Origin: Candidatus Peribacteria bacterium | GTDB taxonomy: Bacteria; Patescibacteriota; Gracilibacteria; Peribacterales; Peribacteraceae | Direction: 5' to 3' | Length of the DNA stretch: 64,000 nucleotides | Assembly: GCA_023245935.1 (NCBI GenBank) | Contig: JAHFJM010000004.1 | Location: 13,924-77,923 of the forward strand | Shown here: positions 24,933-43,022 of the stretch, piece after piece | Layout of the letters: the number at the start of each line of letters is the position of its first letter | Numbering within the stretch: the first letter of the stretch is position 1 | The notes under the pieces: model-generated | What the model was told of the DNA's origin: nothing | Databases searched by the model: none | Seen by the model: only the letters and a program-made list of their open reading frames with translations | Made by a program: the position numbers and the translations under genes

Positions 24933-27900
24933 TTACGAACGTCTCAGGAATCTCCTCCTCGCAAGCCCAATGCCGGCTGCTGCGCCGGTGACGATGAAGA
25001 TCACCATACCCGGACCTTCCTGTGACCGCGCTGGAGTCGGAACTTTCGTCACTTGATCGAAAGCATCTGCAGAGCTTCGGACCCCTTGCGGAGGAATCAG
25101 CGTTCCGACAACCGGAGACGCGGGATGCACCGCTCTCCTGCAGGCGTGATCGCACCCGTCACCGTCGAACGTGTCTCCGGTGTCACACTCCTCATTCACC
25201 GCGACGACTCCGTCGCCGCAGTACGGCAGCTGGCAATTGTCGAGACACCGCGTCGATGCATAGTTCCCGTTGTTGATCCCCGTGTCGCACTGCTCGTACG
25301 GTGAATCGATGACGCCATTGCCGCATTGCGGAACCCTCACCACTCGGCAGAGTACCGTGCAATGCGAAGAAGGCTGACCGTTGAGAGGTCCATCGTCACA
25401 CTGCTCACCGGATCCGCTGTTGATTTGTCCGTCACCGCAGGTACCGTTTTCGACCTTGCATTGCGCGCTGCAACCGTCTCCATCGATGGCATTCGAATCA
25501 TCACACTCTTCTCCCGCATCGATTGCTCCGTTGCCGCAAGTGGTGACCGTCAGGATCTGACAGGTAGTCGTGCAGTTCTGATTGATTTGTCCGTTGAGAG
25601 AGCCAAGATCACATTTCTCCCCCGCTTGCTGTATTCCATCACCGCAGTAGGCAATACTCGAAGCAGGGTACTGATTCTCGCTGGAAGATTGCTGGAAATT
25701 TTGCGAAGGATTTGAGGGGAAACTCGCGATAAATTGACTCGAGCTCGAGGTATCTTTCAAGCTTTGGCAGCACACCTCCGACTGCGAACAATTGCCGAGG
25801 GTCTGAGAGTACGGACACTCCTGGAAGGGAACGCAGGAAGAACCCGTGGGGCAGGTCAGATCACTTGAACTGCTTGAACTCGAGGAGGAATCGAGAGAAC
25901 TTGAGGAGCTCGGCACGGCACCCTGGCAACACACTCCGGTATCCGAACAGGCACCGACTGTGCTCTCCGGCGTGCATTCGTAATAGTTGACGCAAGCGGA
26001 ACCGCCCGGGCAGACGGAATCCGGAACACTCGATGATGAGGACTGCGATCCGCACACCGCGGGACAGGACACTCTCGAATCCCAACATGACCAGCTGCCA
26101 TCCGGACAACAAATCGCTTTATCTTCGCATGCAGGCTTGTTTCCAATGCTGCAGGCTGGAGAGAGAGAACTGGAACTTGAGCTCGAATTTTCACTGCTCG
26201 AAGAAGAACTTGAGGACGAACTGCTGAACGAGGAAGAAGAGGAGCTGCTCACACTGTTGACACTTGAACTGGATGAAGAACTCGAGGAGGGAACAATGGG
26301 AGGGAAGGTGGACGTGCTGTTGCAGGTGTACACCATTGCTCTCGACAGGGAAACGAATCGTACGCAGCCCTGTCCGCAGCTCACCGGCGTGGTTGCCCAG
26401 TGAATGTACTCGGGGAAAGAAACAGACGTATCCTGGCAGAGCGGTTCAGAGGGCGAAGCAGTCATTGCGATCGCATCAATATATTCCTGCCTGTCTTTGT
26501 CCGTGAGATCGGCCGGATCGAAGGAGTAATAGTCGGGATAGTAGGTGCTGTTATAACCGCCCAGTGACGTACTGCTGCGCGTGCATGTGCCCGAAATCGC
26601 AAAGGGACTGATCGAATACTGAACGCCCTGCCATGTGCAGATGTGATCCGGTCCATCCATCGAAACAGGCTGCCATCCGATTTTTGGGAGAGCCTGTGCA
26701 GTGCAGACAAACGGATTCACGTGTCTGCACGCAATGTCGGGGCTCTTGCATGTAGTCGCAAATCCTCTTCCTCCAAGAGACACGAATCTGGCACAGTTTG
26801 GTCCGCAGCTCACAGGCGCAGTCGCCCAGCTGACATCGTGATTGAATGAGACAACGGAACCCGAGCAGGCCGGGGGGGAGCTTTGAACAACATTGAGAAT
26901 CAGATTTTTCATTTGAGTTCTGTCCGGATCCGTCGCATCATTTTTGGCGAAGCTCATGAAATCGGGAACCGTGGGAGGCGTACATGTGCCTGCTTCTTGA
27001 AAGGGATTGAGTGTGAAACGTTTTCCAGTCGCAGTACAAGCGGCATTCGGTCCGTCCATCGAGACAAAATCAACATTGTGCGTGCTTTCGCGGATGCACC
27101 CGATCGGATCGATGGCGGTGCAGGACGACGTGATGTCGCCTCTCAGGATCGATGATCCTCCCGAAATGGCATCTGTGAAACTCCTGATCAAACCGGTCAC
27201 CCAATGCCACACGCCGCTGCCACCGGTTGAAACGGACGAGTTGGAAGTTCCCGGTATCAAGGACCCGAGAAGATTTCCTCCAAGCGTCGAGCTGCTTGCA
27301 CTGTCAACGGCAATTCCATTCACGGCAGGATCCCAGCACATCCAACTGCCGTCGCCGCAGCAGTATGCGTACGCATCGCCGGTGCAGACCGGGGCAACGC
27401 CCTGACATCCTGCGCCGTCGATGAATGAAGATGACGAAGAGGAACTTGAAACACTCGATGTGTTTTGGCAGCAGACTCCGGTCTCCGAACAGACATCAAT
27501 GGTTTGTTCCGGCGTGCATTCGAAGAAGTCGACGCAGGAAGAGTCTTCGGGGCAAGCAGATTGCTCACTGGAAGAAATGCTGCTCTCGCTTGAAGCGCTT
27601 GAACCGTTGTTGCAACAAACGCTGTCGAATGAGCAGGCATCACCGGTATTGTCGGGAGTGCAATCAAAGAAATACTTGCAGGAAGATCCGGACGGACAAC
27701 TGCTGCTCGTGACGCTTGAAGACAAGCTGCTTGTATTGGAACTGACCGACGAACGGGAAGAAACTGCGGAACTTGCGAGTGAAGAACTCGCACTGAATCC
27801 TGAGCTTGCAGAACCGGAACGACTGCTGCTCACACTCGAGCCGGCAGAGAAACTGGAAGAAACCGAAGAACTTGAAACGCTTGATGTGTTTTGGCAGCAG

Positions 27901-30900
27901 ACTTCGAGCGACGAACACTCGCCCACCGTGTGATCCTGATCACAATCGAAGAAGTAGACGCAGGAAGAATCAGCGGGACACCCCGCACTGCTTGAACTAT
28001 TCGAACTCATGCTGCTCTGTGATCGTGAGGATACGACAGAAGATTTCGAGGAACCAACGGAGCTTTGCACGGAGCTCGTAGAAAGGCTGGATCCCGCAGA
28101 ACCGGAACGAGAACTGGAAACGCTCGATGATGTGTTTTGGCAGCAGACTTCCAGTTGAGAACATGCGCCAAGGGTCTGTTCGGGATTACAATCGAAGAAA
28201 TATTTGCAGGAAGAATCGGACGGGCATGCTTCGCTGCTCGAACTCATGCTGTTCTGTGATTGTGAAGAGACAACCGAAGATACCGAACCGGCGGAGCGAC
28301 TGGATCCGGCAGAACCGGAACGGGAGCTGCTTGAATTGGATCTGATCGAAGAAATGGAAGAAACAGAGGAATTCGATGATCCTCCACCGGAGCAAGTACC
28401 GGGACACTGAAGTGTCAGATCCTGACAGGACCAAGTGCCGTCCGGACAGCAGAAGAGCGTGTTTTGGCACTGCGGCTTCGTTGCATCGGAACAGAAGCCT
28501 GCATCAGAACTTGAGGATAGGGAGGAAGAATTTCCGGAAGAAGAATTGTTGGAGGAAGAAGAACTCTTCAAAGACGAACGCGAACTGCTGCGAGAACGGG
28601 GAGAGCTTGAGGAAGAGCAGTACGTAAACCCGGCGACTGCAGCACGGAAGTCACGAGACAGAGCATCCTTGTCTGCAGCGTACCGTGCGTCCAAAGCAGA
28701 GAGCCCGGCTTGGATCTCCGTAGGCACACGTGTTTTGGGATCGATCCCCCTGGCCTGCCAGTAACCGACATCGACTTTGTACAGAACATACACGCTGTTG
28801 ATCGTACTGTTATAGGCAGTGTCCAATGCTGTGCGAATGGTTCCATAGTCCTTCGTCATCGCGACGATTGAGACGCACGCATTCGGAAACGTATAATGCT
28901 CGACCGGACAATTCGCGGGGAATGCGCCAATTGCGGTAAGAAAGTCGCGAGAGAGAGCGGCTGTATCCTGAGCATACTTTCCATCCACAGCAACAAGCAC
29001 CGTCTGAACATCCGCAGGCAAACGTGTTTTGGGATCGATCCCCCTGGCCTGCCAGTAGCCGACATCGATTTTGTACAGAACATACACGCTGTTGATCGTA
29101 CTGTTATACGTATCAGTCAGTGTTTTTTTCGCAGCGGCAAAGTCAGTGATCGAATCGATAACGGGTACACACTCGGTCGGAGGAGGGGGAGGCGGAGGGC
29201 AACTGCTCGATGGGAAGGCGGCAACCGCGGCACGGAAGTCACGATTGAGAGCCGCTGTATCTGCAGTGTACCTTGTGCTGAGAGCCGCAAGAGCAGTCTT
29301 GATCTCTGCGGGCAGAAAGAATTCCGGATTGTTGCGATTCTGAACGCCGTAGGTGGCATAGATGGAATTTGCATTCGTGCTGTACGCATTTGAGAGCGTT
29401 TTCGTTTCTGCGTTGTATTCCTCAGTCATCGCAACAACGGACACGCATGAATTCGTAAACGTATAGCTCTCCACGGGACAATTCGTCGGGAATGCGCCGA
29501 TAGCTGCAAGAAAGTTGCGAGAGAGAGCAGCTGTATCTGCGGCGTACTTCTTATCCATCGCATCGAGCGAAGCCTTGACCTCTGCGCTCAGAAAGAATCT
29601 TGGATTGTCGCGGTTTTGAACACCGTAAATGGCGTACACATTGTAGATTGCGGTGTTGTAGGTACTGGCAAGCGTTTTGCTTGCTGCAGCGTAGCTGGCG
29701 ACTGAGCTTGCGATAGGAACGCACTCGGTTGGCGGAGGGGGAACAGGACAGTCTCCGGGAAGCGTGGCGAGTGCAGCGTTCAAATCATGAGAGAGCGCAT
29801 CCTTATCCGCAGCGTACTTGCTGTCCACGGCGGCGAGTGCTGCATCGACCTCTGCACCGATGAAGATTCTTGGAACATGGTCTGCGTACGTCGCAGGATT
29901 ATAAGGATGGTAGATGGCATACAATTGCAGAATCGAATTGCGGTATGCAGTGTCCATCGCTTTGCGCTTTTCAGCGTAGACACGCATCATGTCGACCGCC
30001 GACACTCCGCATGTATCTGGGAACACAGTGCTTTGTGTGGGACAATTCAGAGGAAACGCAGCGAGGGCTGCAAACAAGTCATTGGAGAGAGCAGCCGTAT
30101 CTGCGGCGTACTTCCCGTCCAACACCGCGAGGATGGCATCGACCTCTGCACTGATGAAGATTCTTGGAACATGGTCTGCGTACGTCGCAGGATTATAAGG
30201 ATGGTAGATGGCATACAATTGCAGAATCGAATTGCGGTATGCAGTGTCCATCGCTTTGCGTTTCGCACCGTACTCACTCATCGAATCGACAACTTGCACG
30301 CAAGTATTCTGCGGAGAAGCGACTCCTCCCGTGAGATCTCCTTTCAAGGTGTCACCCGCTCCATTGAAGATGCTTCCAAAGAAATGCAGAACGCTTTTGC
30401 CAAGATCGATGATCCACTGCATCAGGCCTGAACCGGACTGATTCGATGCGAGCGCTGTTTTGTGACCTCCGAAGAGCAAGTTCCCTCCTAGGATTGATCC
30501 CCCACCGGGAGCCTCGTCGACGATGAGACCGTTCACCGAAGGATCGAAACACATCCAATTTCCGTTGCCGCAGCAATATGCATACGAATTGCCGGAACAC
30601 ACGGGCTCTGCGTCGCCGCACCCGGTAATGCTGGAGCTGAGGCTGCTGGCCGAAGAACAAGACTCCGGACCGCAGGAGATCACGCAACCATTCGCACCGA
30701 AAACCATCGAGGAAAAAGTACATCCGGGTCCCGGGTCGCAGACGAGACATGAGGAAGATTTCGAAGAACTGGACACCTTCGAATTGTTGCTATTCGCTGA
30801 CGAAGATGAACTGGACGGAGGATCGGTACAATCCCGATTCAATGAATTCCGCGCCGTGATGTAGTTTCGATGCAAGGCATCCAGATTGGCTAGGTAGGTA

Positions 30901-33900
30901 TTGTACAGAGAAGTGCGTGAAGTTGCGTAGTCTCTGTCCAGAGCCGCACGGGCAGCAGTGAAGGTGCGATACAAAGCGTCGTTTGAGGCGGCGAAAGTTC
31001 GGTCCAGGGTATCGCGGGCGGCGGTATAGTCACGAGTGATGATCGAGCGAGAGCTTTGATAGCTTTTCTCCAAGGTGGCGCTCGATGCGAGGTACGTGTT
31101 TTTGAGCGTCGCGAGAGTGTTTTGGTAGATCGTGAGCCTCGAAGCGGCAGTCGAGGTGACATAGGTCTGGTACGCTGCATTGATCGCATCGATGTAGTTG
31201 GTTTCCAGCGTATTCCTTGACGTTTGGTACGTACTCAGAAGAGCATTGAGCGACGCAGTGTTCTTGGTCTCGAGGGCATTGCGCGCCGCCTCGTGCGACG
31301 AAAGCAATGCATTGCGATCGGTATTGTATTTGGCGAGCAAAGCGTTTCCGGACGTTTCGTACGCAGTCGTCGCATCATCCCTGGACGCATTGTACTTGGC
31401 GTCGAGGGCGGCAACCGCTGCAGCATAGTTTCGGTCGAGGGCAGCGAATTGATCGCTACAATCACCAGGCTCGGAGCTTGCGGAAGAGCGGGAAGAAGAG
31501 AGTGAGGACGAGGACGAAGGACAAGGCAACGCCTGGAAAACTCCGTCGCAGTAATATCCGTCCTCTTGGCTCGAAGAGGAGGAAGAACCGGAAGAGACGG
31601 GCTGGCATGAAGCGAATGCGCAGTTCGGTCCCGTGCGAGCGACGTAACTGCCATCGGGACACTGCAAGACATCGAGCTCACATACCTGCGGTCGGCTGCT
31701 TGAGAGAGAGGAAGCGGAGGAGAACGACGAAGGCGCTGACGAAGAGAGCGAAGAAGAGGAAGGCTCCGGAATGCACTGCAAGTTAAGTTCTGCGAGTGCA
31801 GTATTGTAATTACGGTCAAGCACCGAGCGTGTGGCAGTGTATGACGACCGCAAGGCATCATACGAGAGTGCATACTCGTTTTTAGCGCGAACGCGTGAAA
31901 TCTGATACTCACGGTTTAAAGTGCTCAGCGCCGTTTGCCATTCAATGCGCGCGTCATCGAAGACACTATTGACCCAATGGGTACCTAGCTGGCTCGAATA
32001 CGCGTAGTATCCATGGTACTTTTTGTAGAGTGCATTCGTTGATACAGAGTACTCATTCTGGATGCGAGCAAGCGTTTCATCGTACGTCTTCTTCCCATCC
32101 CTCAGCGCAGCCTGGTACTCGCTATCGAGTTGAGCACCCTTCGCCTCGTAGGTTTTCGTGAGTGCCCTCGACGACACAATGTTCTTGCTTTCCAGCTGAC
32201 TGCGAATCGAGGCGTAGATACCGTTCAATTTCCGTACCAAATCATTGTACTGCCAGACTAAAGTCTGACTCTCTGATTGATACTGAATACCAAGAGCATG
32301 CTGAGCATCGGAGTATTTCCTTTCCAAAGCATAGAGCAAATTACCATACTTCGTTTTGAGCTTATTTCGATCAGAGCTGTACTTGTAACCGAGTTGCCGG
32401 ATCGTGTAGGCATTGCCATCCGAAGCATCGAGGGAAGCAAGGTAGCTCGCCGTCAGTGCGTCAAACTCCGTTTTGTACTGCGCATTGAAGGAATCACGCG
32501 AGGCAGTGTACTGCTCGTAGAGCGTGATGAGCGATGCGGCAAGCTGACTGTCCATGGCATCTCTGGAAGCGACAAAGTTGCTGTCCAGCTTTGCAAGCTC
32601 CGCTGCTTGTTTGCTCTCCATCGCAGCGAGTGCGTCGTCGTAGGGACGTTTCAAAGCGGCGAGCGCTGCTTGGTACTCCTTCTCCAATGCAGCAGCGGAA
32701 GCAAGGTAATTTTTGTAGAGATTCGCCTTCCATGTCGCAAAATCCCCGAGGGAAGCAATCGCAGTATTGTAGGCACTGCGCAACGCTGCACTCGCAGCAG
32801 TGTATTCGACCTGCAACGCCGCAACCTTGGCTTTGTACCTATCGTATAAAGCTGTTCTTGCGATGGGGTAATCCCGATCGAGAATTGCAAGCGAGGTGTT
32901 GTAGTCACGGAGAAGATTGGCAAAGAGCACTGCGTATTTTGCGTCCAGTGCGGCAATCGCTGCCGTGTAATCGCGCAGTAACGCAGCGCGCAGAGCATCG
33001 CATTCTTCTTTCGTATAGTGCGAACTGCTGGAGCTTGAAGATCGCACAGAACTTGCAGAGCTTGAGGAAGCAACAGAGCAGGTAACATCGGCTATGCATG
33101 CTCCGGCAGCGCACACACCGGAGCCGCACGCTGTCGGATCGATGGCTGTGCACTTCGTTCCTTCGTTCACATAGCAACTGCCGCCATTCAAATAGGATCC
33201 CTGCGGACACTGCCCATTGATTGCGCTGACCGTGCAGCTGACGACCGGGGAGGCCGATGAAGACGTGAGAAAATTCGCACATCCTCTGGCATCGTACGTG
33301 CAGTACTGACCGACTTTGCAGCAGTGAACCGGACCACCCGTGCAGGTGATTTGATCGAAGGCACACGCCTGCGGTGCACACTTGCCACCTGAGCAGTTAT
33401 TGCTACAGCAGCCCGGAGTCATCGGCGTCACGAAGCCGTCGTTCATACAGCATGGACCGGCAATTGCAGGACAGGCAGCTCCGTCCTGCAAGCAAAGACC
33501 GGCACAGAGCGGGACTCCTGTCGGACAGATTCGACTGGATGAAGAAGAGAAGGTTAACCCGCATGCTGCAGTACAGGCTCCAAGAGTGTCAAACACCGGC
33601 TGCCCGGAACAGAGCGAGGAATTCGACTGCTGCATGCAAGTGGGAGGAGCGTGCTGCAGGTGATCGCAGCAGTACACGGATTGAGTCGGCGTAATGACAG
33701 GTCCGCAGAGTGTGACGTTGCTTGCCAAGGCGGTTGCACAATTCTGCGTCGCAAAGTACGTGCCTGACTTCACCGCGCATGCCGACGACGTGATAAGTTC
33801 ACATGCATGTGCGGAGCAACATGCAGAGAGCGGACAGTCTGCATGACAGGAGTCATTGGTTTCTCCGGCATCGCAAATTCCATTCTGGTTGCATGTGGTG

Positions 33901-34208
33901 GACAACGGACATTCAGCCGGGCAGAGAGCATTCGTCTCTCCGGGTTCGCAGATGCCATTCATATTGCATGCTGTTCCGCCCGTACCGCATCCCTGTCCTG
34001 CGCAATCGGAACAGCCGCTCGTGCACTCCTGTGCCGAATCGCAGACACCGTTTAAGTTGCATGTAATACTGCATCCGGGCGTTCCGACGATACAGCCCTT
34101 CAGTTTTGAAGGATTCCGCAACACATTCGATTGCAGAAGAACGATCGTCATCACGAGCCCGAGAAGCGCACCGATCAGAAGCCTCAGGGGGAACTTTATT
34201 GGCATCAT
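24933..34208 (-). CDS. Giant (3,091 aa) Cys-rich, Ser-tract-rich modular cell-surface protein with N-terminal signal/anchor and C-terminal TM + Arg-rich tail
   Basis: This is a single uninterrupted ORF with the N-terminus [25 protein letters not shown]. It has internally repeated modules (see the repeat features) and myxo-type Cys repeats. The C-terminus is [27 protein letters not shown]. All other-frame ORFs inside it are low-complexity shadows. Confidence 0.85.
   Translation of the reverse strand: [3091 protein letters not shown]
25137..25646 (-). repeat. Five myxo-type cysteine-rich repeats (CG[DN]G...E.CD.G..N......C...C), aa 2855-3024 of the giant protein
   Basis: An example is [27 protein letters not shown]. 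This is the pattern of the Myxococcus cysteine-rich repeat (myxo_disulf_rpt / DUF4215-like). Confidence 0.75.
25767..26012 (-). repeat. 6-Cys knot modules K5-K6 (aa 2733-2814)
   Basis: The modules are [29 protein letters not shown] and [29 protein letters not shown], with spacing C-x5-C-x5-C-x8-C-x5-CC. Confidence 0.8.
27468..28226 (-). repeat. 6-Cys knot modules K1-K4 separated by Ser-rich linkers (aa 1995-2247)
   Basis: The modules are [87 protein letters not shown] and [29 protein letters not shown]. Confidence 0.85.
28617..30302 (-). repeat. Six tandem ~95-98-aa repeats (aa 1303-1864) arranged as three pairs
   Basis: Each unit starts with C(V/G)..(V/A) and ends with ..FP..CP. Pair R1/R2 shares a 125-nt DNA block (29842-29966 vs 30136-30260, 1 mismatch). 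Pair R5/R6 shares an 87-nt block (28728-28814 vs 29022-29108, 2 mismatches). Both blocks are offset by exactly 294 nt. Confidence 0.85.
30828..31460 (-). repeat. Hendecad (11-residue) Tyr/Ala repeat region B (aa 917-1127)
   Basis: Aromatic residues lie at 928, 939, 950, 961, (972 H), 994, 1005, 1016, then 1028, 1039, 1050, 1061, 1072, 1083, 1094, 1105 and 1116. Confidence 0.8.
31773..33011 (-). repeat. Hendecad (11-residue) Tyr/Ala repeat region A (aa 400-812)
   Basis: Tyr lies at 414, 425, 436, 447, 458, 469 and 480, then at 501, 512 and 523. F545, L556, Y567, Y578 and Y589 follow. Y621 to Y731 are spaced by 11 with one gap, and Y768, 779, 790 and 801 complete the series. The motif is roughly (L)D..Y..A..AL. 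Confidence 0.85.
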
Positions 34209-34286: not shown

Positions 34287-35615
34287 CTATGGCCTGCAGC
34301 AAACTGTCGGTCCAAAATTGCCGGGTGCGCATGCACCTGCAGTCTGCTTCGAGCTCGGACACATCGCGGTGACTCTGCATGCATTCGGGGAACTGCATGG
34401 CGGAACACAACACACCTTGCCGCCGGTACATGAGTCATTGGTCCTCCTCGCTATGGGACACGATGCACTTGTTGCGCATGCATTCGGAGAAGCGCACGCC
34501 GTCACCGGGTCACAACACACCTTATTGGTACCGGAACATGCCCCTGTTGTGCGGCTCAAGGCCGGACAGAGCATAGTCGTTAGACATGTATTCGGAGACT
34601 GACATGTCGGAGCGCGACAGCAGACCAACTGCGGACTGCTGGTGGGACAGGCAACTCCCGGCATCCGTCTTGATACTGGACAGGAGGCAGGATTTTTACA
34701 TGAATCGGGGAGACCGCATGATGTACAGCAAATCGTGCCTGTGGGACATGCGCCACCCGTCTGGTGTGACAACGGACATTGGCTCGTCGGTGAACATAAA
34801 TTACCGGAGGCACATGCTGCTGAAGCAGAAGAGGAAGGATTGGATGATTGCTGAGAAGAAGGCGATGAACTGCGTCTGGAAGATCTTGAGGAAGAACGTC
34901 TGGAGGACCGAATGGAGGAATTGGCACTGGAACCTCCTCCACCCCCCCCTCCACTACTACTGGAACTTATGGAAGACTGTCCGGAGGAATTGGCACTGGA
35001 ACCTCCCGAACCTCCACTGCCTGAAGAACCGCTGGAGCCACCGGAACCCGCACTGCCGGAGGAACCAGTGGAACCGCTGGAGCCACCGGAGCCGCCTGAG
35101 CTGGAAAAGGCAGGACATAATGGATCGGGGAGAGTAACCATAACGCATAAATTGAAAAAAAGGTCACACGTGCAGTGCCCCATTCCTCCTGCAGGTTGGC
35201 AACCATTGTTACAGATCTGCATATTGCTCACTTGTCCAATGCATGATGCATCTGGATTTGGAGCGGTATTGCAGCCAGAACTTGAAGATGTGCTCATGCT
35301 TGAGGAATTTGAGCTGGCAGATGCACCGCCACACACTCCCGGATGTGCAGTCTGTGCTGCTGCACACGTTAATTCCCCTGGGAAGAAATTTCCCAGTGCG
35401 GTCGTACAAGCAGTCGGGGTCATTACACCGATACAGTGAGGTGTTGGCACCGTGGAACAACAGGCAGCGGTCGGGGGAGTGAGTGCCATTCCCTTCACAT
35501 CACTATTCACTCTAAACCAGAGCTGCATCGCAAGAACAATCACCAACAGAACTGCAGGAACAACGATGGCTGTGAAACCAATGATATTGGAGGAGAACTT
35601 CTTGGGATGCTTCAT
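34287..35615 (-). CDS. N-anchored Cys-rich surface protein (442 aa) with Gly/Ser tract and five 6-Cys knot modules
   Basis: The N-terminus is MKHPKKFSSNIIGFTAIVVPAVLLVIVLAM. The GS/S tract spans aa 171-266. Five C-x5-C-x5-CP-x8/9-C-x5-8-CC modules span aa 268-440 (nt 34296-34814). Confidence 0.75.
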   Translation of the reverse strand: MKHPKKFSSNIIGFTAIVVPAVLLVIVLAMQLWFRVNSDVKGMALTPPTAACCSTVPTPHCIGVMTPTACTTALGNFFPGELTCAAAQTAHPGVCGGASASSNSSSMSTSSSSGCNTAPNPDASCIGQVSNMQICNNGCQPAGGMGHCTCDLFFNLCVMVTLPDPLCPAFSSSGGSGGSSGSTGSSGSAGSGGSSGSSGSGGSGGSSANSSGQSSISSSSSGGGGGGGSSANSSIRSSRRSSSRSSRRSSSPSSQQSSNPSSSASAACASGNLCSPTSQCPLSHQTGGACPTGTICCTSCGLPDSCKNPASCPVSRRMPGVACPTSSPQLVCCRAPTCQSPNTCLTTMLCPALSRTTGACSGTNKVCCDPVTACASPNACATSASCPIARRTNDSCTGGKVCCVPPCSSPNACRVTAMCPSSKQTAGACAPGNFGPTVCCRP

Positions 35616-35638: not shown

Positions 35639-37267
35639 CTATTCTGCTCTGCACAACTTGCTGCAACCGTCACCGGATTTCGTGTTCTTATCGTCACACT
35701 GCTCACCGGTATCGATCGTCCCATTGCCGCAGACTGCCGCATGAAGACCGCGGAGCGTGGTGAGGAGGAGAATCAAGTCCTTCCGATCCACGGCACCGTC
35801 ATTATTCAGGTCATTTCTGAGATTTTTGATTTTCATGTCCTGGAACATCATCGTGATTCCCCTGTACATCTCGCTGTTGCTTAGCACACCGCTTCGATCG
35901 ACGTCGAGAGCGGTCAGAATACGAGCGACTAAGGGAGCGATTGGAGCTACGACGAGCGGAGGAGGCAACGCTACTGCAGTGCAAAGGGGAAGAAGTGGTG
36001 ACGGAGCCTTGCACAACCAAGGGAACGGCGGCGGTCCCGGTGGTGGGTGGAGAGGGCAATTACCGAAATGATGCGGACAGTAGTAGTACGCCTCAAGTAC
36101 GCCATGATCCCCGGCAATAATGCCCGCGTCCGGTCCATCGCATTTAATGTACTTTGCCGGTGTCTCGTTGACGCCAATGCACGTGCCCGGTCCTCCGCAT
36201 GTGTTTTCACAAAGTGTCTTAAAGCTGTTCATGTAGGGACCAAGAATAGCGCAGTCGATGGTGATCGGTGGCGTGTTACCCGGTGGAAGTGGAGTCGTAG
36301 GTGGGGGAACTTGTGGCGGATAGCCGGGATAGCCGAGTGCGACCGTGCACCTCTTTTGCATACAATTTGCACTGCAGCCGTCTTGGACAACGGCACACGC
36401 TCCTGTACCGGGGCAGTCTGCAGCGACGCTGCACTGCTTCCCTAAATCCGGAGGACCATTCGGACAATGCTTTCCATTGTCACAGACTTCCGGTGCAGTG
36501 ACGATTCCGTCTCCACAAGCGACGGTGCAGACACTGGTGGAAGTAGCGAGTGGAAGATTTTCACAAGACCAACCGTTCTGAATATTGCAGGCTGCAGTAC
36601 ACCCGTCTCCATTCGTGTTGTTGCCGTCGTCACAGGCTTCATCGTCTCCGCCACCCGGAGCATTGTCTTGGCCATTGGCATCTCTGTATCCGTCTCCGCA
36701 TGATTCGGTTTTGCAAATGTTACTGCAGCCATCTCCGGAAACGGTATTCCCGTCGTCACACTCCTCCGGAGCCACTGTGGCATTGTCTCCACAGGAGCCA
36801 ATCGGTACGCATGTAGTGCCAACGCAGACAGTAACTCCCGGGTTACACATCGGTGGAGTGCAAGCAGACACGCACGTTCCTGATAAGCACGTTCCACAAC
36901 AAGGAGGCTTTTCGGTGGAAGGCATTGGTCCGACGCAGCAAGCGGTCGTCGCTCCCGGAGAAAGGCAGCTGGTGCTACCGTCAGGTCTGCACGTTGAGGC
37001 ATTTCCACACGTGGGAATCGTGACGTCGGGACACGGTCCAAGGAAAGTGCATATTGCAGGAGAACCAAGACACACCGCCGGCGCAATGCAATTCGATGTG
37101 TTGCAAGCGAACACGCATCCTGTAGATGGACAAACAATGCCTCTCAGAGACGTTGTATTTGAGAAGAGCGATGACTTGATGATAAGAACAACCACCAAAA
37201 GAACGGTCGGAACTACGAGAGCTGTGACACGGATAGCAGTGGATGAGTGCTTCGAGAAATGCTTCAT
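35639..37267 (-). CDS. N-anchored Cys-rich surface protein (542 aa) with myxo-type Cys repeats and a dockerin-like EF-hand pair
   Basis: The N-terminus MKHFSKHSSTAIRVTALVVPTVLLVVVLII is paralogous to the neighbour. The repeats CGDNATVAPEECDDGNTVSGDGCSNIC, ACDDGNNTNGDGCTAAC and CGNGTIDTGEQCDDKNTKSGDGCSKLC are present. The loops DVDRSGVLSNSE and DLNNDGAVDRKD lie at aa 455-497. Confidence 0.75.
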   Translation of the reverse strand: MKHFSKHSSTAIRVTALVVPTVLLVVVLIIKSSLFSNTTSLRGIVCPSTGCVFACNTSNCIAPAVCLGSPAICTFLGPCPDVTIPTCGNASTCRPDGSTSCLSPGATTACCVGPMPSTEKPPCCGTCLSGTCVSACTPPMCNPGVTVCVGTTCVPIGSCGDNATVAPEECDDGNTVSGDGCSNICKTESCGDGYRDANGQDNAPGGGDDEACDDGNNTNGDGCTAACNIQNGWSCENLPLATSTSVCTVACGDGIVTAPEVCDNGKHCPNGPPDLGKQCSVAADCPGTGACAVVQDGCSANCMQKRCTVALGYPGYPPQVPPPTTPLPPGNTPPITIDCAILGPYMNSFKTLCENTCGGPGTCIGVNETPAKYIKCDGPDAGIIAGDHGVLEAYYYCPHHFGNCPLHPPPGPPPFPWLCKAPSPLLPLCTAVALPPPLVVAPIAPLVARILTALDVDRSGVLSNSEMYRGITMMFQDMKIKNLRNDLNNDGAVDRKDLILLLTTLRGLHAAVCGNGTIDTGEQCDDKNTKSGDGCSKLCRAE

Positions 37268-37362
37268 ACAATTATCTTCATCCTAAAGGTTGCGCACTTC
37301 CTGAAGCAATACGATCTTCTCAGAATTTGGTTTTTGGAATTTTTCGTCTTACACTGCCGTCC

Positions 37363-38883
37363 ATGATCAGAAAAAGCACATCAGACGAGAAAAAAAAACC
37401 GTCCCACGTGTGGCTGTATGCGTTGTTCGTCCTCGTGACGTCGTTCTTCACGTACATGTACCGCTACGACTTCCCGCCGAATCCTTTCTGGGATGAGCCG
37501 TACCACATCGTCTCCGCTCAGAAGTACCTGAACGGAGTCTTCTTCATGGAGCAGCATCCTCCGCTTGGGAAACTGTTCATCGCTCTGGGAGAAAAGATCG
37601 TGCACGGAAATGCACGGAACGATCAGTTCCTGACGACCGACTACGCAAACAATATTCCGAACGGTTTCAACTTCGCGGGATACCGACTCTTCCCGACACT
37701 GTTCGCGTGGCTCACTGCACCAGTGCTCTTCTTCATCTTTCTCTTCATCACGGGAAGCAGTCCCCTCTCCGCACTCCTTTCTTTCCTCTACGTCTTCGAC
37801 AATGCAGAGATCGTCCACAGCCGCGGCGCGATGGTGGACAGCACACTGACGTTCTTCGGAATGCTCTGCGTGCTGCTCTTCCTCCATCTCCAGCGAAGAG
37901 AAAGGAAGGTCACGCTGAAGAAGCATTGCATTCTCTCGCTTCTCCTCGGCGTATCGTTCGGGCTTGCAATGGCGACGAAAGTCATCGCACTCATCTTCAT
38001 CCTGCTCTTCCCGCTGATCATCCTGCGCCTGCTCCCCGATTGGAGAAAAGTCACGCTCTTCTGTGTTCTCAGCATGGTAGGAATGATGACAATGTACGTC
38101 AGTGTCTGGCAGATTCACTTCTCACTCGGGAAGAGAGTCGTGCCCGAACTCCCCGATAACGGGTATTACCAGGCATCGAGCGAGCTGAAGACGATTCTCA
38201 GTTCGCATGCGCAGAACACATTGTCGTCATTCCCCGTGATGCTTCGCGATCACCTGCTGTTCGCACCGCACTACAACAGAGGAGTGCCGCGTCTCGACCT
38301 GTGCAAGAAAGATGAGAACGGAAGCCCCTCGTACTTCTGGCCGTTCGGGGCACGGTCGATCAACTATCGCTGGCAACAGGAGAATGAGAATGCGTATCGC
38401 TATCTCTACCTCGTGAGCAATCCCGTCGCATGGGGGCTTGGGCTGCTTGGCATTTTATTGACTGCCGTTCTTCTGATCGGCTCACAACTTTTCACAGTCA
38501 AAGAAAAACTGCAGCAGCCGTTTCTGCTTCTGTCGTTTTTTGGCATCTACTGCTCATACATGATTGCAATCAGCCGCATCACGCGTGTGATGTACCTCTA
38601 CCACTATTTCCTGCCTCTCCTGTTCAGCTTCATTCTGTTTTCGCTCGTCCTCATCAATATCCGAACCATCGGACGGTACAGAGTCACCGATGATCGGCGC
38701 ATCGTCTTCATGACGATTCTCGGTCTTCTGATCTTCGGTGCATTCCAATTCATGAGGCCGCTCACCTATTACGAGCCGCTGACCGACAGTGCATTCAAGA
38801 AACGAGCAATCGTGACCATGTGGGAATTGACCTGTGTCCGTTGCCAGAAACTCAGTTGGCTTGTGGTGCCGACCGGGAATTAG
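37363..38883 (+). CDS. Dolichyl/polyprenyl-phosphate-mannose protein O-mannosyltransferase (GT39, PMT family)
   Basis: The loop-1 DE motif (FWDEPYHIVSAQKYL), the HPPLGK motif and about 10 TM helices are present. The start is set at the ATG at 37363 (MIRKSTSDEKKKPSHVWLY...). The gene is divergent from the 542-aa gene across a 95-nt spacer. Confidence 0.8.
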   Translation: MIRKSTSDEKKKPSHVWLYALFVLVTSFFTYMYRYDFPPNPFWDEPYHIVSAQKYLNGVFFMEQHPPLGKLFIALGEKIVHGNARNDQFLTTDYANNIPNGFNFAGYRLFPTLFAWLTAPVLFFIFLFITGSSPLSALLSFLYVFDNAEIVHSRGAMVDSTLTFFGMLCVLLFLHLQRRERKVTLKKHCILSLLLGVSFGLAMATKVIALIFILLFPLIILRLLPDWRKVTLFCVLSMVGMMTMYVSVWQIHFSLGKRVVPELPDNGYYQASSELKTILSSHAQNTLSSFPVMLRDHLLFAPHYNRGVPRLDLCKKDENGSPSYFWPFGARSINYRWQQENENAYRYLYLVSNPVAWGLGLLGILLTAVLLIGSQLFTVKEKLQQPFLLLSFFGIYCSYMIAISRITRVMYLYHYFLPLLFSFILFSLVLINIRTIGRYRVTDDRRIVFMTILGLLIFGAFQFMRPLTYYEPLTDSAFKKRAIVTMWELTCVRCQKLSWLVVPTGN

Positions 38884-38958: not shown

Positions 38959-40380
38959 ATGCGTTTCACCAAAATCGTCGCGACCATCGGTCCTGTGACA
39001 TCGTCAGTCGAAAAAATCGAGCAGCTTGCAAAAGCCGGTGTCAATGTTTGCCGTCTGAATTTTTCTCACGGCAGCTATGAAGTGCACGGACAGACGATGG
39101 AGAACATCAAAACAGTCAACAAGAAGGGATACTCGCTTGCGATCATGCTCGACACCAAAGGACCGGAGATTCGTACGGGAGACGTCACGCAGGCGATTGT
39201 CATCAAGAGAGGCGACAGGGTGATCTTCACGTCGAAGGCAACAGGCAAGGAGAAGCTCACGACCATCACGGTGGATTATCCGAAATTTGCGGAAGACGTG
39301 AAGAACGCGAGGTGCATTCTCATCGACAACGGTTCCATCGAATTCAGCGTCGAGAGCATCGAGAAGGGAGGCATCGTCATCGCGAAAGCGCTTGAAGATG
39401 GAAAGATCGGTTCCAGGAGACACGTCAATCTTCCCGGCGCCGATGTCAGTCTGCCGTCGTTCACACCGAAAGACTGGGCGGATATCAGCTTCGGCGTGAA
39501 GCACGGCGTGGACTTCTATGCGACGTCGTTCGTGCGCACCGGAAAGGACATTCGTACGCTCAAAGCATTTCTTTTGAAACACAAAAGTGATGGCGAGATC
39601 ATTGCGAAGATCGAGACGCCGCAGGCAGTCGACAACATCGACGCAATCATCGATGCGGCAGACGGTGTGATGGTTGCACGCGGCGACCTCGGAGCCGAGG
39701 TACCGTTTGAGGATGTTCCGAAGATACAGGAAATGATCGTTGCGAAATGCCGCTTGAACGGAAAGCCGGTCATCGTTGCCACGCACATGCTCGAGAGCAT
39801 GATCCTCTCGCCGATGCCCACGCGCGCCGAAGTCACGGACATCGCATTCGCAGCGATGCTCCAGACCGATTCCACCATGCTTTCAGGTGAAACGACGACG
39901 GGTCTCTATCCCTTCAAAGCGGTCTCTGCCATGGATCGGGTGCTGAAAGTCAGCGAACGAATCGAACACGGAGACATGGCCTCATCGATGCTTCGAAAAA
40001 CGGAGAACATCGCAAACAACATGCCGAGGCAAGAACAGGCAGTTGCTGCGAGCGTGCTGGCAACCAAACTGAAAGCTGACATCATCCTCGTCATCAGCAA
40101 GCACGGACATACGGCGATGGCCGTGAGCAACTGTCGCCCGCTCGTCCCCATTCATGCGTTCGTCGAGACCGAGAGCAGGCAGAGAAAACTGATGCTCGTC
40201 TGGGGCATCACCCCTCACACGATCCGGTTCTCTGAAAAACCGGAGGACACTCTCGATCGTGCACTTGCGTTCCTCGACAAGAACAAGCTCGTCAAGAAGG
40301 GACAGAGAGTGGTCGTTGTCTCCGACATTCGAACCGGAATGACTCCGGTGATGACGATTCAGATACGAACCATCAACTAG
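38959..40380 (+). CDS. pyk: Pyruvate kinase
   Basis: MRFTKIVATIGP, NVCRLNFSHGS, MVARGDLGAEV and the C-terminal regulatory domain are present. ATG is at 38959. Confidence 0.95.
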   Translation: MRFTKIVATIGPVTSSVEKIEQLAKAGVNVCRLNFSHGSYEVHGQTMENIKTVNKKGYSLAIMLDTKGPEIRTGDVTQAIVIKRGDRVIFTSKATGKEKLTTITVDYPKFAEDVKNARCILIDNGSIEFSVESIEKGGIVIAKALEDGKIGSRRHVNLPGADVSLPSFTPKDWADISFGVKHGVDFYATSFVRTGKDIRTLKAFLLKHKSDGEIIAKIETPQAVDNIDAIIDAADGVMVARGDLGAEVPFEDVPKIQEMIVAKCRLNGKPVIVATHMLESMILSPMPTRAEVTDIAFAAMLQTDSTMLSGETTTGLYPFKAVSAMDRVLKVSERIEHGDMASSMLRKTENIANNMPRQEQAVAASVLATKLKADIILVISKHGHTAMAVSNCRPLVPIHAFVETESRQRKLMLVWGITPHTIRFSEKPEDTLDRALAFLDKNKLVKKGQRVVVVSDIRTGMTPVMTIQIRTIN

Positions 40381-41761: not shown

Positions 41762-42904
41762 TCACCCCTCTCCAGCCGATGGAGAGGGGCTGGGGGTGAG
41801 GACCGTCTCAAAAACCGCATGCAAGTCCTTCGCCCTCTCCTCAGGTGAAAATCTTTTCCGTGCATCTTCCCTCCCCTTCTCCGAAAGTTTTTGACGAAGC
41901 TCCGGAGAACCGAGCGCTTCGACAATTGCACGCGCGCAGTCGGTTCTGTCACCTGCCGTACAGACAAGTCCCGTTTCGTGATCTCTCACAATACTCCGTA
42001 GACCCGGTGCATCGCTTACGATGACACACGTCCCGGCGAGCATTCCCTGCGCCGCTATGAGACCGAAGCCTTCGAGAAGCGACGGCACGACAAGCACCGT
42101 CGTTGCTGCAAGTTCACGGTACATCGAAGCATCGTCGGTGTGCCCGAGCAGAGTCACAACGTGGGTCAGATTTTTCTCAAACAGAAATTTTTCCAGTGCA
42201 TCTCCGATCAGATTTCTTCCGATCAATCTGACTCTGATGCTCGGATGCGACACTCGAAGAATTTCAATTGCTTTCAGCAACGTCCAAATGCCCTTTCGCT
42301 CCTCAAGCCTTCCGATGAAGAGAATCGTCGCGGGATCTCTTCTCTGTAAAGAATTGTTTGAGGCAGCCGTTACAGCATTCTCGATCACGCACACTTTCGA
42401 TTTCGGAATGTCATACCTCTGTACAAGGAAATCTGCAGTGTCTTTCGAAACGCAGACGATGCGATCGGCAAGTGCGTACGTTCGCTTCTCAAGTTTTGAC
42501 ATGAACTTTTTCCACAGACATTTGAAAAGTGATCCGGAGAAAACAATCTCCGCTTCCTGCAGGTACGTGTGATGCGCGGTGACAACAAGAGGACACGACG
42601 GCTTTCGAAGCAAAAAAACTCCACCCGATCCTGCGTGAACATGAAGAAGATCGAGACGGTGTTTTATGATAAGCGATGGCAGCCTGAATAAAAGCATCAG
42701 GGAAAACAGAGGACAACCGCCTGACTTCTTCCACCGTGAAGCGGCAAGTGAACTCACGCGATCATCGGCGTTTTCGCTCGGAGAAAGTGCAATGAGCGTA
42801 TCCTCCGGAAACAACGTCTCAAGCATTTGCTTCGTCTGCTGTGCAACAATCCCCAGCCCTCCAATCGGAGGGCTGAAATCGTAGGTGAGGATTCCGATGC
42901 GCAT
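41762..42904 (-). CDS. Glycosyltransferase family 4 (GT-B, RfaG-like)
   Basis: The N-terminus is MRIGILTYDFSPPIGGLG, and the C-terminal motif EGFGLIAAQGMLAGTCVIVSD (E-x7-E type) is present. The reverse complement of ATG is at 42902-42904. Confidence 0.85.
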   Translation of the reverse strand: MRIGILTYDFSPPIGGLGIVAQQTKQMLETLFPEDTLIALSPSENADDRVSSLAASRWKKSGGCPLFSLMLLFRLPSLIIKHRLDLLHVHAGSGGVFLLRKPSCPLVVTAHHTYLQEAEIVFSGSLFKCLWKKFMSKLEKRTYALADRIVCVSKDTADFLVQRYDIPKSKVCVIENAVTAASNNSLQRRDPATILFIGRLEERKGIWTLLKAIEILRVSHPSIRVRLIGRNLIGDALEKFLFEKNLTHVVTLLGHTDDASMYRELAATTVLVVPSLLEGFGLIAAQGMLAGTCVIVSDAPGLRSIVRDHETGLVCTAGDRTDCARAIVEALGSPELRQKLSEKGREDARKRFSPEERAKDLHAVFETVLTPSPSPSAGEG

Positions 42905-43022
42905 GTGGAAATAGTAGCATGTAAGAGAATGTTGACTTATAACGATTTTCATTCAATATGACCAAGTTGCTGCCGATCTTTACATCACCGATGTTCGGGA
43001 TGGAGAAAGGTGCTTCTTATGA

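Follow-up and report, generated by a model that had tools for sequence, protein, structure and literature searches.

A GT39-type protein O-mannosyltransferase gene adjoins genes for anchored Ser-tract and Cys-rich proteins in one clade of Peribacteria

Among the targets of fungal protein O-mannosyltransferases (PMTs) are mucin-like cell-wall proteins and sensors rich in Ser and Thr (Wsc1, Mid2, Msb2). They serve as the working model for the Peribacteria proteins described below, in which long Ser/Thr-rich stretches of anchored surface proteins would, once densely O-mannosylated, form extended rigid stalks. The eukaryotic PMTs carry a MIR domain and work as dimers in the ER, with dolichol-phosphate-mannose as the donor. 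The actinobacterial Pmt/Ppm1 proteins (M. tuberculosis Rv1002c, S. coelicolor SCO3154, C. glutamicum Cg_1014) are single-subunit GT39 enzymes of about 500-590 aa without a MIR domain, which take the sugar from a polyprenyl-phosphate donor made by a GT2 enzyme and modify exported proteins; the literature cited here describes no pmt gene beside those of its substrates (PMC12331936, PMC5882110). In the M. tuberculosis enzyme four catalytic residues are essential, as determined by mutagenesis, the loop-1 Asp being D74 (equivalent to ScPmt1 D77 and ScPmt2 D92), and the substrate sites of mycobacterial PMT are rich in Pro, Thr and Ala (PMC12331936).

Two further systems combine such enzymes with the genes of their targets. 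The GT39 gene of C. bescii (Cbes_1864) lies next to celA in the glucan degradation locus; its substrates, multidomain cellulases encoded by co-oriented genes, are glycosylated on Ser/Thr-rich inter-domain linkers (Thr/Pro linkers), and its deletion abolishes glycosylation (PMC6151902). The sugar moved by non-actinobacterial GT39 enzymes is disputed (PMC12757957). In the S. mutans Pgf system (cnm-pgfS-pgfM1-pgfE-pgfM2), a co-transcribed operon, the gene of an adhesin with Thr-rich repeats and a C-terminal anchor of the LPXTG/sortase type is accompanied by genes for the modifying GT2 and for polytopic PMT-superfamily proteins, PgfM1 and PgfM2, which belong to the PMT_2 subfamily and not to GT39 (PMC5856776). 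The serine-rich repeat adhesins of Gram-positive bacteria (GspB, Fap1, SRRPs) are likewise very large, Ser-tract-dominated, C-terminally anchored and heavily O-glycosylated, in their case by cytoplasmic GT-B enzymes before accessory Sec export (PMC5578698).

The locus described below lies in a 64-kb stretch of a contig from an uncultured Candidatus Peribacteria bacterium of groundwater type (the window), in which a PMT gene is transcribed away from an array of genes for Ser- and Cys-rich proteins (Table 1). The first-pass annotation had called dedicated pairings of this kind poorly documented outside Actinobacteria. This was overstated, given the pairings published for C. bescii and S. mutans and the GT39 gene of Ca. 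Peribacter riflensis, which had been annotated in a supplementary table in 2016. The 2016 paper on the Peribacter genomes also noted numerous "dolichol-phosphate mannosyltransferase" genes and, separately, extracellular proteins that are large and Cys-rich, but drew no connection between the two. No novelty is expected in the enzymology of the Peribacteria PMT; what is new is comparative, namely the pairing of a PMT with a membrane-anchored Ser/Cys-rich family in one PMT clade.

Table 1. Features of the PMT locus, in positions of the window
Feature	Coordinates	Strand	Basis or remarks
GT39-type protein O-mannosyltransferase gene (bacterial type, without MIR domain)	37363..38883	+	506 aa; Pfam, PDB, AF2, Foldseek
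WDEPYH, loop-1 motif with catalytic Asp44 and Glu45	37489..37506	+	residues 43-48
HPPLGK motif	37555..37572	+	residues 65-70; aligns with HPPLGK of yeast Pmt2
Asp159, second (loop-2) acidic catalytic residue	37837..37839	+	aligns with ScPmt2 D203 = MtPMT D176
Arg408-x2-Tyr411, R-x2-Y motif of external loop 5	38584..38595	+	aligns with ScPmt2 R671/Y674 = MtPMT R441/Y444
Pyruvate kinase gene, synteny marker (no functional link proposed)	38959..40380	+	Pfam PK, PK_C; downstream of PMT throughout clade A
Divergent intergenic spacer, 95 nt	37268..37362	.	between the starts of PMT and the 542-aa Cys-rich gene
542-aa signal-anchored Cys-rich protein, directly divergent from PMT	35639..37267	-	DUF4215 x3; TIGR02232 myxo_disulf_rpt 109.9 bits
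442-aa signal-anchored Ser/Gly/Cys-rich protein	34287..35615	-	one 111-aa Ser/Gly tract
3091-aa giant protein	24933..34208	-	N-terminal anchor; ten Ser tracts; conserved C-terminal module
Conserved C-terminal module, residues 2847-3091; hallmark of the protein family beside PMT	24936..25670	-	homologue comparison
Tripartite C-terminal anchor VPTPARSQEGPG / MVIFIVTGAAAGIGLA / RRRFLRRS	24936..25043	-	family consensus IPTPARTPTGPG-LVIFLASGAAAGIG-VRRR

The PMT reading frame proposed in the first-pass annotation is present in the sequence and begins at M41 of a longer ORF (37243..38883). Relatives of the protein are 495-510 aa long, with the alignment starting at residue 1-4 of the 506-aa form, and an independent public gene call on an identical contig uses the same ATG. 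The 546-aa reading from the ATG at 37243, which overlaps the divergent gene and agrees neither with the homologues nor with the independent gene call, was rejected.

The family placement of the product rests on discrimination by Pfam, PDB and Foldseek searches. The Pfam models PMT (PF02366, residues 23-229; 115.6 bits against a cut-off of 22.7) and PMT_4TMC (PF16192, the C-terminal four-helix module, residues 315-487; 57.4 bits against 32.4) both match above their cut-offs, so that the family match lies far beyond chance. Sequence and profile searches of the PDB, taken to E<=10, returned Pmt1, Pmt2 and Pmt4 only (best E 1e-24). The AF2 model (pLDDT 80.9, pTM 0.86) contains 11 long helices and a loop-4 beta-hairpin. 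Foldseek placed the fungal Pmt4, Pmt1 and Pmt2 nearest to this model (TMq 0.72-0.77, E 1e-9 to 7e-15), and non-PMT GT-C folds reached a TMq of at most 0.50. As predicted, the protein thus has a GT-C fold of 7+4 transmembrane helices that is closest to the solved PMTs.

The two motifs on which the first-pass annotation had relied, WDEPYH and HPPLGK, were both found, and are nearly invariant in 29 homologues. WDEPYH, with D44-E45 aligned to ScPmt2 D92-E93, is unchanged in all 29, as are Arg408 and Tyr411, while HPPLGK varies by a single G69A substitution; position 159 is D in 19 homologues and E in 10. By alignment, each of the four residues essential in MtPMT has a counterpart in the Peribacteria protein. 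The WW-like loop-4 hairpin of the actinobacterial enzymes is also recognizable (here P322-x3-W326-x8-Y335-x14-L350-x3-P354), although it lacks their insertion of ~9 aa, and the organism belongs to another phylum (CPR). No MIR domain was matched by Pfam in the 506 residues, in contrast to the eukaryotic enzymes of 750-820 aa; bacterial PMTs have none (PMC12331936), and its absence therefore indicates the bacterial subtype and does not contradict family membership. ArnT-like families, whose grouping with this protein would have spoken against a PMT, were excluded: PMT_2 (PF13231) did not match at E<=0.01, ArnT was not returned from the PDB by sequence or profile at E<=10, and it is not among the 50 best structural matches. 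An ArnT-like or GT83-like identity is hence ruled out by the Pfam, PDB and Foldseek results together with the catalytic residues. The earlier assignment to a polytopic GT-C enzyme of the PMT family was upheld, and the sequence identifies the product as a genuine member of GT39.

The head-to-head arrangement with a 95-nt spacer was described correctly. A scan of this spacer for sigma-70 promoters found zero consensus sites at threshold, and counts were not above those of shuffled sequence. A sub-threshold, promoter-like TTGG..N17..TACACT element ends 8 nt before the PMT ATG and is conserved in an alignment of the window with two related loci (L002 and L003), three species in all.

The claim that PMT faces the Ser-tract proteins needed correction. 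They do belong to the same minus-strand array, whose order from PMT is the 542-aa, the 442-aa and the 3091-aa gene, but the facing gene encodes a Cys-rich protein (9.6% Cys, 6% Ser) with an N-terminal hydrophobic segment (residues 12-30) and no Ser tract; the tracts are found in the products of the second and third genes. The 442-aa protein has no match in Pfam or NCBIfam. In the 3091-aa protein, the ten Ser tracts total 573 aa (524 Ser), Cys-rich and helical modules lie between them, and Myxo_disulf_rpt repeats are located near the C-terminus. Ser makes up nearly all of the tracts and Pro and Thr are scarce, whereas the sites of mycobacterial substrates are rich in Pro, Thr and Ala (PMC12331936). 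All six Ser codons are evenly used and tandem repeats are absent at the DNA level, which argues that the tracts are selected as protein and rules out slippage-prone DNA repeats as their source.

The 3091-aa protein begins with a hydrophobic segment and ends with a transmembrane segment followed by the basic tail, so ~3000 residues are predicted to lie outside the membrane; the abundance of Cys-rich repeats in it points to oxidising surroundings beyond the cytoplasm. Its C-terminal Cys-repeat module is 33-59% identical to that of PMT-adjacent proteins in 15-17 related genomes. Among the 120 best homologues, 37 carry the anchor consensus (IPTPARTPTGPG-TM-RRR), which was seen on one DUF4215 family only. 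No curated NCBIfam model of a known sorting signal (LPXTG, PEP-CTERM, MYXO-CTERM, PID-CTERM and others) reached its cut-off with three C-termini searched at E<=10, the sole return being PID-CTERM, whose scores of 11.5-12.4 bits stay below the cut-off of 26.

The distribution of the pairing was examined across Peribacteria. PMT is present in all lineages sampled, with or without the family beside it. In clade A, which is monophyletic in the PMT tree, the family defined by the C-terminal module adjoins PMT in 17 of 19 informative genomes, at PMT identities down to 51%. Its paralogues multiply in place, to as many as seven genes (L034), and at two loci (L006 and L008) they flank PMT on both sides; within 420 kb of clade-A loci, 35 of 46 Ser/Cys-rich ORFs are located within 3.5 kb of PMT. 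At another locus (L001), genes for a PMT_2 GT-C and a thiol-disulfide oxidoreductase are inserted between PMT and the Ser-rich gene, an arrangement compatible with a surface-protein maturation island. Retention of the pairing in some twenty related species makes the Ser/Cys-rich proteins likely candidates for targets of the PMT. Since clade A is monophyletic, the adjacency is essentially one event, and as the opposite flank (pyruvate kinase, ftsL and rsmH) is just as well conserved, synteny by itself says little about function.

The reading we favour is that the gene encodes a functional GT39 O-glycosyltransferase, most likely O-mannosyl, whose principal clients are the adjacent anchored Ser-tract/Cys-rich proteins; we consider it probable, with appreciable room for doubt. 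The enzyme would be an 11-helix membrane protein with its active site (Asp44/Glu45, Asp159, Arg408/Tyr411) facing the outside of the cytoplasmic membrane. A polyprenyl-phosphate carrier, charged with sugar in the cytoplasm by a GT2 of the Dpm1/ArnC/GtrB class encoded elsewhere in the genome, would supply the sugar, which PMT would transfer to Ser/Thr hydroxyls of unfolded chains during export. The principal clients would be this Peribacteria-specific family, anchored at both the N- and C-terminus, with small disulfide-rich modules spaced by long Ser tracts. Once densely O-glycosylated, the tracts would become stiff, protease-resistant, mucin-like stalks that hold the Cys-rich modules off the cell, plausibly for attachment. 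Like the first-pass annotation, we infer that the neighbours are substrates of the PMT; their predicted extracytoplasmic location and the conserved pairing speak for this, while the essentially single origin of the adjacency limits how much the pairing can say.

The proposed system would share with the actinobacterial one a GT2-made polyprenyl-phosphate sugar donor and exported protein targets, and differs from it in the position of pmt beside its putative substrates and in the near-pure poly-Ser of the candidate sites. Like the C. bescii enzyme, it is a non-actinobacterial GT39 encoded near genes of its putative secreted substrates, but these are anchored Ser-tract/Cys-repeat proteins whose genes diverge from its own. 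The class-B loci of Peribacteria (PMT-GT2-PMT_2) resemble the S. mutans Pgf arrangement, whereas the locus studied here is a divergent pair. In place of the cytoplasmic GT-B enzymes of the SRRPs, the neighbour of the Ser-tract genes is an outward-facing GT-C.

The PMT could instead be a general housekeeping enzyme that, like its actinobacterial counterparts, modifies a broad range of exported proteins, lipoproteins and enzymes among them, its position merely reflecting inherited gene order. The occurrence of PMT throughout the sampled Peribacteria would suit such a role, as would the single origin of the adjacency and the equal synteny of the unrelated pyk, ftsL and rsmH. The family is beside PMT in none of ten class-B loci, two clade-A loci (L028 and L036) carry PMT without Ser/Cys-rich neighbours, and in all class-B genomes PMT is remote from the Cys-rich genes, as in Ca. 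P. riflensis, where PMT is gene 61 and the Cys-rich genes are numbers 109, 228-229, 1089-1102 and others; the PMT is thus not dedicated to this family. Gene order inherited by descent, however, does not account for duplication and diversification of the family around PMT specifically, on both its sides, nor for the apparent departure of PMT from an older locus. In basal lineages the order is FtsH-PMT-GT2, with PMT between FtsH and a polyprenyl-phosphate GT2 and without nearby Ser/Cys-rich proteins, and in class-B relatives GT2 adjoins PMT. The clade-A genome ASF_3 (the MAG that is also the source of locus L024) has purC-GT2-FtsH-purB without PMT. Because GT2 stays at the old locus in this genome, comparison of gene orders suggests that PMT was moved next to the Ser/Cys-rich genes and the candidate donor synthase left behind. 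In addition, a membrane PMT could scarcely pass over unfolded tracts that are exported with Ser residues exposed by the hundred. A purely housekeeping role is on these grounds unlikely.

The nature of the sugar bears on a second alternative, in which PMT O-glycosylates its neighbours with a sugar other than mannose, e.g. glucose, galactose or an amino sugar on polyprenyl phosphate. A point against the favoured reading is that neither a GDP-mannose gene nor a donor synthase was found in the 64-kb window, which was searched by blastp and tblastn with five Peribacteria GT2s and by Pfam among ~35 window proteins; in the GT2 homologue table, the best 120 matches are all on class-B-type contigs. The PMT-associated GT2 received no equivalog assignment, its best matches spanning ArnC, PpgS, AglJ, and Dol-P-hexose and Dol-P-Man synthases, a spread over several synthase types that leaves room for other sugars, and the best solved homologues of the ASF_3 GT2 are ArnC, the Pyrococcus Dol-P-Man synthase and GtrB. 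For CelA, a substrate of the C. bescii GT39, galactose has been reported (PMC12757957), and Peribacteria make many unusual sugars (PMC4736985). On the other hand, mannose is the sugar of every biochemically characterised GT39 enzyme, and the GT2 beside PMT in Ca. P. riflensis scores as DPM1 (K00721) with 154.6 against the KEGG threshold of 50.9. We therefore regard a non-mannose sugar as rather improbable.

That the Ser tracts are unmodified or are modified by another enzyme, with PMT serving other targets, is very improbable: a pre-export cytoplasmic GT-B (like GtfA/B or SdgA/B) could be sought in the one generic GT4 gene 3 kb away in the same syntenic block (41762..42952), and another GT-C in the multi-pass 632-aa TPR protein (12458..14356) or the PMT_2-type enzymes beside PMT in relatives, but the GT4 similarity to SdgA/SdgB is weak and family-level only (40-48 bits, the best being SdgA at 48, against a cut-off of 800), no accessory Sec genes (SecA2/SecY2) were seen beside the Ser-rich genes among the part of the window ORFs scanned, no glycosyltransferase model fits the N-terminal domain of the TPR protein (in a search for TMTC-like features its N-terminal 400 aa had no Pfam match and PDB matches covered the TPR part only), and none of these genes is placed as tightly against the Ser/Cys-rich genes as PMT.

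O-glycosylation of the adjacent proteins by the GT39 enzyme remains the reading we prefer. A bolder extension of it, tentative and unlikely as a whole, would see in one Peribacteria clade a dedicated surface-glycoprotein island, comprising a relocated GT39 and fast-evolving, mucin-like, disulfide-knotted stalk proteins of 0.5 to >3 thousand residues, whose undescribed C-terminal signal (IPTPARTPTGPG-TM-RRR) may be read by a sorting or anchoring enzyme; together these might form the glycosylated host-attachment apparatus of symbiosis-dependent CPR cells. For CPR bacteria a life in attachment to other cells is generally assumed, yet the construction of their surface is almost uncharted. The conserved pairing of a PMT with Ser-tract proteins offers a concrete, testable hypothesis for one step of envelope maturation. 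If it is true, protein O-mannosylation, which in bacteria has been studied almost entirely in Actinobacteria, would extend to another deep bacterial lineage.

The enzyme encoded divergently from the Ser/Cys-rich genes had been assigned to the GT39 protein O-mannosyltransferases (PMTs) by the first-pass annotation, on the motifs WDEPYH and HPPLGK and a polytopic GT-C layout. Both motifs are present in the 506-aa protein (residues 43-48 and 65-70, respectively) and are essentially invariant among 29 homologues; the named PMT homologues are all from Candidatus Peribacteria, Peribacteraceae or Peregrinibacteria. The Pfam models PMT (residues 23-229; 115.6 bits vs. a cut-off of 22.7) and PMT_4TMC (residues 315-487; 57.4 bits vs. 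32.4) matched the protein, and no PMT_2/ArnT-type match was obtained at E≤0.01. Searches of all PDB sequences, performed with the single sequence and with a 29-sequence profile, retrieved only Pmt1, Pmt2 and Pmt4 of yeast and Chaetomium (E down to 1e-24) and no non-PMT protein at E≤10. The AlphaFold2 model (mean pLDDT 80.9, pTM 0.86) comprises eleven long helices and a large external loop with a beta-hairpin. Foldseek ranked Pmt4, Pmt1 and Pmt2 highest (TMq 0.72-0.77; E-values between 7e-15 and 7e-9). For other GT-C folds (STT3, DPY19, Emb, ALG9, PglB) the TMq did not exceed 0.50, and the top 50 matches did not include ArnT.

Four residues of the Mycobacterium tuberculosis PMT, D74, D176, R441 and Y444 (D92, D203, R671 and Y674 of ScPmt2), are essential according to mutagenesis (PMC12331936). 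Alignment to ScPmt2 identified D44, D159, R408 and Y411 as their counterparts, leaving the catalytic apparatus intact; D44, R408 and Y411 are invariant in all 29 homologues, and position 159 is D or E in every one. A WW-like hairpin signature (P322-x3-W326-x8-Y335-x14-L350-x3-P354) was also recognisable. The protein lacks a MIR domain, a feature that it shares with other PMTs from bacteria. The GT39 assignment is thus borne out by Pfam, PDB searches, Foldseek and catalytic residues, the first three placing the enzyme with PMTs and not with ArnT. That it is a GT39 PMT is virtually certain, this membership being about as secure as sequence analysis permits.

The PMT frame is open over 37243..38883 (+), and the ATG at 37363 is its Met41. 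The closest relatives are 495-510 aa long, with alignments starting at residues 1-4; a public gene call, made independently on an identical contig of 11.5 kb, uses the same ATG; and the upstream ATG at 37243 was rejected because it would run into the divergent gene, which begins at 37267; 37363 is therefore the correct start. Given these starts, the 95-nt spacer described earlier was recovered exactly. A TTGG..(17 nt)..TACACT element ending 8 nt 5' of the PMT start codon is kept in three species (the window and related loci L002 and L003, aligned). It scored below threshold in a consensus promoter scan, and may be a promoter yielding a leaderless or near-leaderless mRNA.

The head-to-head arrangement of PMT with a Cys-rich gene was confirmed, with the correction that this direct partner has no Ser tract; the tracts are located in the two genes that come next in the same minus-strand array (see table). 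Each of the three proteins of the array opens with basic residues and a segment of strong hydrophobicity. The 3091-aa protein has, in addition, a C-terminal TM helix with the tail RRRFLRRS, so that an external location is predicted for ∼3000 of its residues, with Cys-rich and helical modules set apart by Ser tracts. The six Ser codons are used about evenly in the tracts (55/55/33/38/37/35) and no DNA tandem repeats were found, which rules out upkeep by slippage and argues that the tracts are maintained as protein. Residues ∼1430-1960 contain near-identical repeats together with more diverged copies, a pattern that indicates recent intragenic duplication.

The last 245 residues of the 3091-aa protein comprise 4-5 myxo_disulf_rpt/DUF4215 repeats, a Pro-rich spacer and an anchor, and share 33-59% identity with the C-terminal ends of PMT-adjacent proteins from related genomes (the anchored-module family). 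The tripartite anchor, with the consensus (I/V)PTPA(R/K)TPTGPG-LVIFLASGAAAGIG-x-VRRR, is strikingly conserved in the window and in proteins of loci L002-L038. Its build is that of a protein-sorting signal; curated sorting-signal models (CTERM/LPXTG) gave no match, and the motif has so far been found only on the DUF4215-repeat family and only in Peribacteria. Public gene calls of several family members cover just the last 226-260 aa, from an internal Met (compare L008 with database protein P0139), vs. continuous ORFs of 560 to >2400 aa, and therefore database annotation seems to miss their Ser-rich parts.

Features of the window and of related loci (window positions unless a locus is named)
Feature	Position	Strand	Characteristics
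tRNA-Ile	329..405	-	anticodon TAT (UAU), uncommon in bacteria
Small exported protein	501..941	+	146 aa, Ser-rich, Gmad2 Ig-like domain
TPR membrane protein	12458..14356	-	632 aa; ∼400-aa polytopic N-terminal part without family match, strong C-terminal TPR array
Pyridine-nucleotide-disulfide oxidoreductase	14363..15400	-	adjoins DsbA/thioredoxin-like protein
DsbA/thioredoxin-like protein	15710..16480	+
Small exported protein	22541..22945	-	134 aa, 12% Cys
3091-aa protein	24933..34208	-	ten Ser tracts, 573 aa in total, 524 Ser
Tripartite C-terminal anchor	24936..25043	-
Internal repeats	28300..29900	-	∼95-110 aa each (YAEKRKAMDTAYRNSILQLYAIYHPYNPATYADHVPRIFI...CP)
442-aa protein	34287..35615	-	one 111-aa Ser/Gly tract
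542-aa Cys-rich protein	35639..37267	-	9.6% Cys, 6% Ser, no Ser tract; directly divergent from PMT
Spacer	37268..37362
TTGG..(17 nt)..TACACT element	37322..37354	+
PMT	37363..38883	+	506 aa
GT4	41762..42952		conserved
Wzy_C membrane protein	58657..60600	-	647 aa; O-antigen ligase-like domain, weak C-terminal TPR
Three-gene insert	L001 6710..10002		between PMT and Ser-rich gene
Anchored-module ORF	L008 7905..9743
MazE/PemK toxin-antitoxin pair	L040 11556..12142		between PMT and GT2

Elsewhere in the window, the Wzy_C protein is a candidate for another surface-glycan enzyme, and the DsbA/thioredoxin-like protein and adjoining oxidoreductase could provide oxidative folding for many Cys-rich exported proteins. 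Two more small exported proteins and a tRNA-Ile were also observed.

Scanning a single genome from each species gave 38 Peribacteria loci. On the evidence of ORF tables, tblastn searches for the C-terminal module and an NJ tree built from the PMTs, they fall into two classes. Class A is monophyletic (51-78% identity to the window enzyme) and has the order frr-pyrH-small gene-(1 to 7 Ser/Cys-rich genes, minus strand)<>PMT-pyk-ftsL-rsmH-GT4. The anchored-module family was found in 15 of the 19 class-A loci with ≥2.3 kb of upstream sequence; two more (L001 and L003) carry giant Ser-rich ORFs extending past the locus edge, the C-terminus of the former being present in database fragments from the same contig, and the remaining two loci, L028 and L036, are without the family. 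Three shorter loci (L013-L015) also start with Ser/Cys-rich ORFs. Anchored paralogues amass in place, with three copies each in L017, L018 and L034, and flank PMT on both sides in L006 and L008. Class A contains 46 Ser/Cys-rich ORFs in 420 kb, 35 of them ≤3.5 kb from PMT, vs. none in 167 kb of class-B loci. The pairing is thus long conserved and locally expanded. In L001, the closest relative, the three-gene insert codes for a GT-C enzyme of PMT_2 type (31 bits), for a membrane protein that bears a DCC1-like thiol-disulfide oxidoreductase domain and for an uncharacterised 221-aa protein, consistent with a surface-protein maturation island.

Class B comprises basal lineages, among them Ca. Peribacter, with the order purB-FtsH<>PMT><GT2. 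Genes for GT-C enzymes of PMT_2 type often come next; a toxin-antitoxin pair is wedged into L040. The Cys-rich genes of P. riflensis are located elsewhere in the genome than PMT. The class-B GT2 is a ∼230-aa PF00535 protein whose best solved homologues are ArnC, the Pyrococcus dolichol-phosphate-mannose synthase and GtrB, which identifies it as a polyprenyl-phosphate glycosyltransferase. Neither a GT2 of this type nor mannose-activation genes were found in the 64-kb window. An orthologue (P0354, 59% identity) is encoded on contig JBEBFT010000002.1 (L042) of assembly GCA_040081825.1, the same MAG as class-A locus L024, so a donor-synthase candidate exists in at least one clade-A genome; its presence in the window's own genome is an extrapolation. 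The context of P0354, purC-GT2-(134 aa)-FtsH-purB, is the class-B locus minus PMT. Because the basal order is purB-FtsH-PMT-GT2 (L042 compared with L024, L030, L031, L040 and L043), the simplest reading is that PMT, at the base of clade A, left the donor-synthase locus for that of the Ser/Cys-rich genes, and GT2 stayed.

Such a move supports a functional pull towards the Ser/Cys-rich genes. A dedicated enzyme-substrate relationship has four points against it. According to the NJ tree, the adjacency arose once; the housekeeping genes flanking PMT on its far side show the same degree of synteny; PMT occurs without such neighbours in two genomes of clade A and in every class-B genome; and the tracts are poly-Ser vs. 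the Pro/Thr-rich sites preferred by the mycobacterial enzyme. The strongest alternative is that PMT is a general housekeeping enzyme and its synteny with the neighbours coincidental. We consider it slightly more likely than not that the neighbours are major PMT substrates. The full proposal, in which PMT glycosylates their Ser tracts with mannose supplied by way of GT2, is in our judgement moderately probable. GT2 would load mannose onto polyprenyl phosphate, the product would be flipped across the membrane, and Ser residues would receive the sugar from PMT during Sec export, giving mucin-like stalks that would present disulfide-rich modules for attachment. The tracts might instead be unmodified, or modified by other transferases, such as the conserved GT4, PMT_2 enzymes or the TPR membrane protein, which in its architecture recalls the TMTC-type (GT105) protein O-mannosyltransferases. 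In a further alternative the pathway is as proposed but its sugar is not mannose; the class-B GT2 has no NCBIfam equivalog that would assign its sugar, and the sugar on the GT39 substrate of C. bescii is itself disputed (PMC12757957).

A GT39 gene is not new to the class, since gene 61 of Ca. Peribacter riflensis is listed as K00728 POMT 'gt39A', flanked by a K00721 DPM1-type GT2 (gene 60) and FtsH (gene 62), in a supplementary table of the complete genomes paper (PMC4736985). In its main text, that paper mentions ∼8 genes for 'dolichol-phosphate mannosyltransferase' and ∼20 large Cys-rich proteins that are extracellular and weakly similar to Myxococcus repeats. According to CAZy, GT39 occurs in ∼4000 bacterial species, the vast majority Actinobacteria (PMC12757957, PMC11727336). 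The view that enzyme-substrate pairing is poorly documented outside this phylum is only partly true, as two published cases encode a GT-C enzyme beside a Ser/Thr-rich substrate. In C. bescii, the GT39 gene Cbes_1864 lies near celA in the glucan degradation locus and its deletion abolished glycosylation of secreted enzymes (PMC6151902); in S. mutans, cnm-pgfS-pgfM1-pgfE-pgfM2 combines an adhesin that has a Thr-rich region, a GT2 and membrane proteins of PMT_2 type (PMC5856776). The present case adds a new lineage, a new family of substrate candidates whose conserved C-terminal anchor was previously undescribed, and evidence that a gene was relocated.
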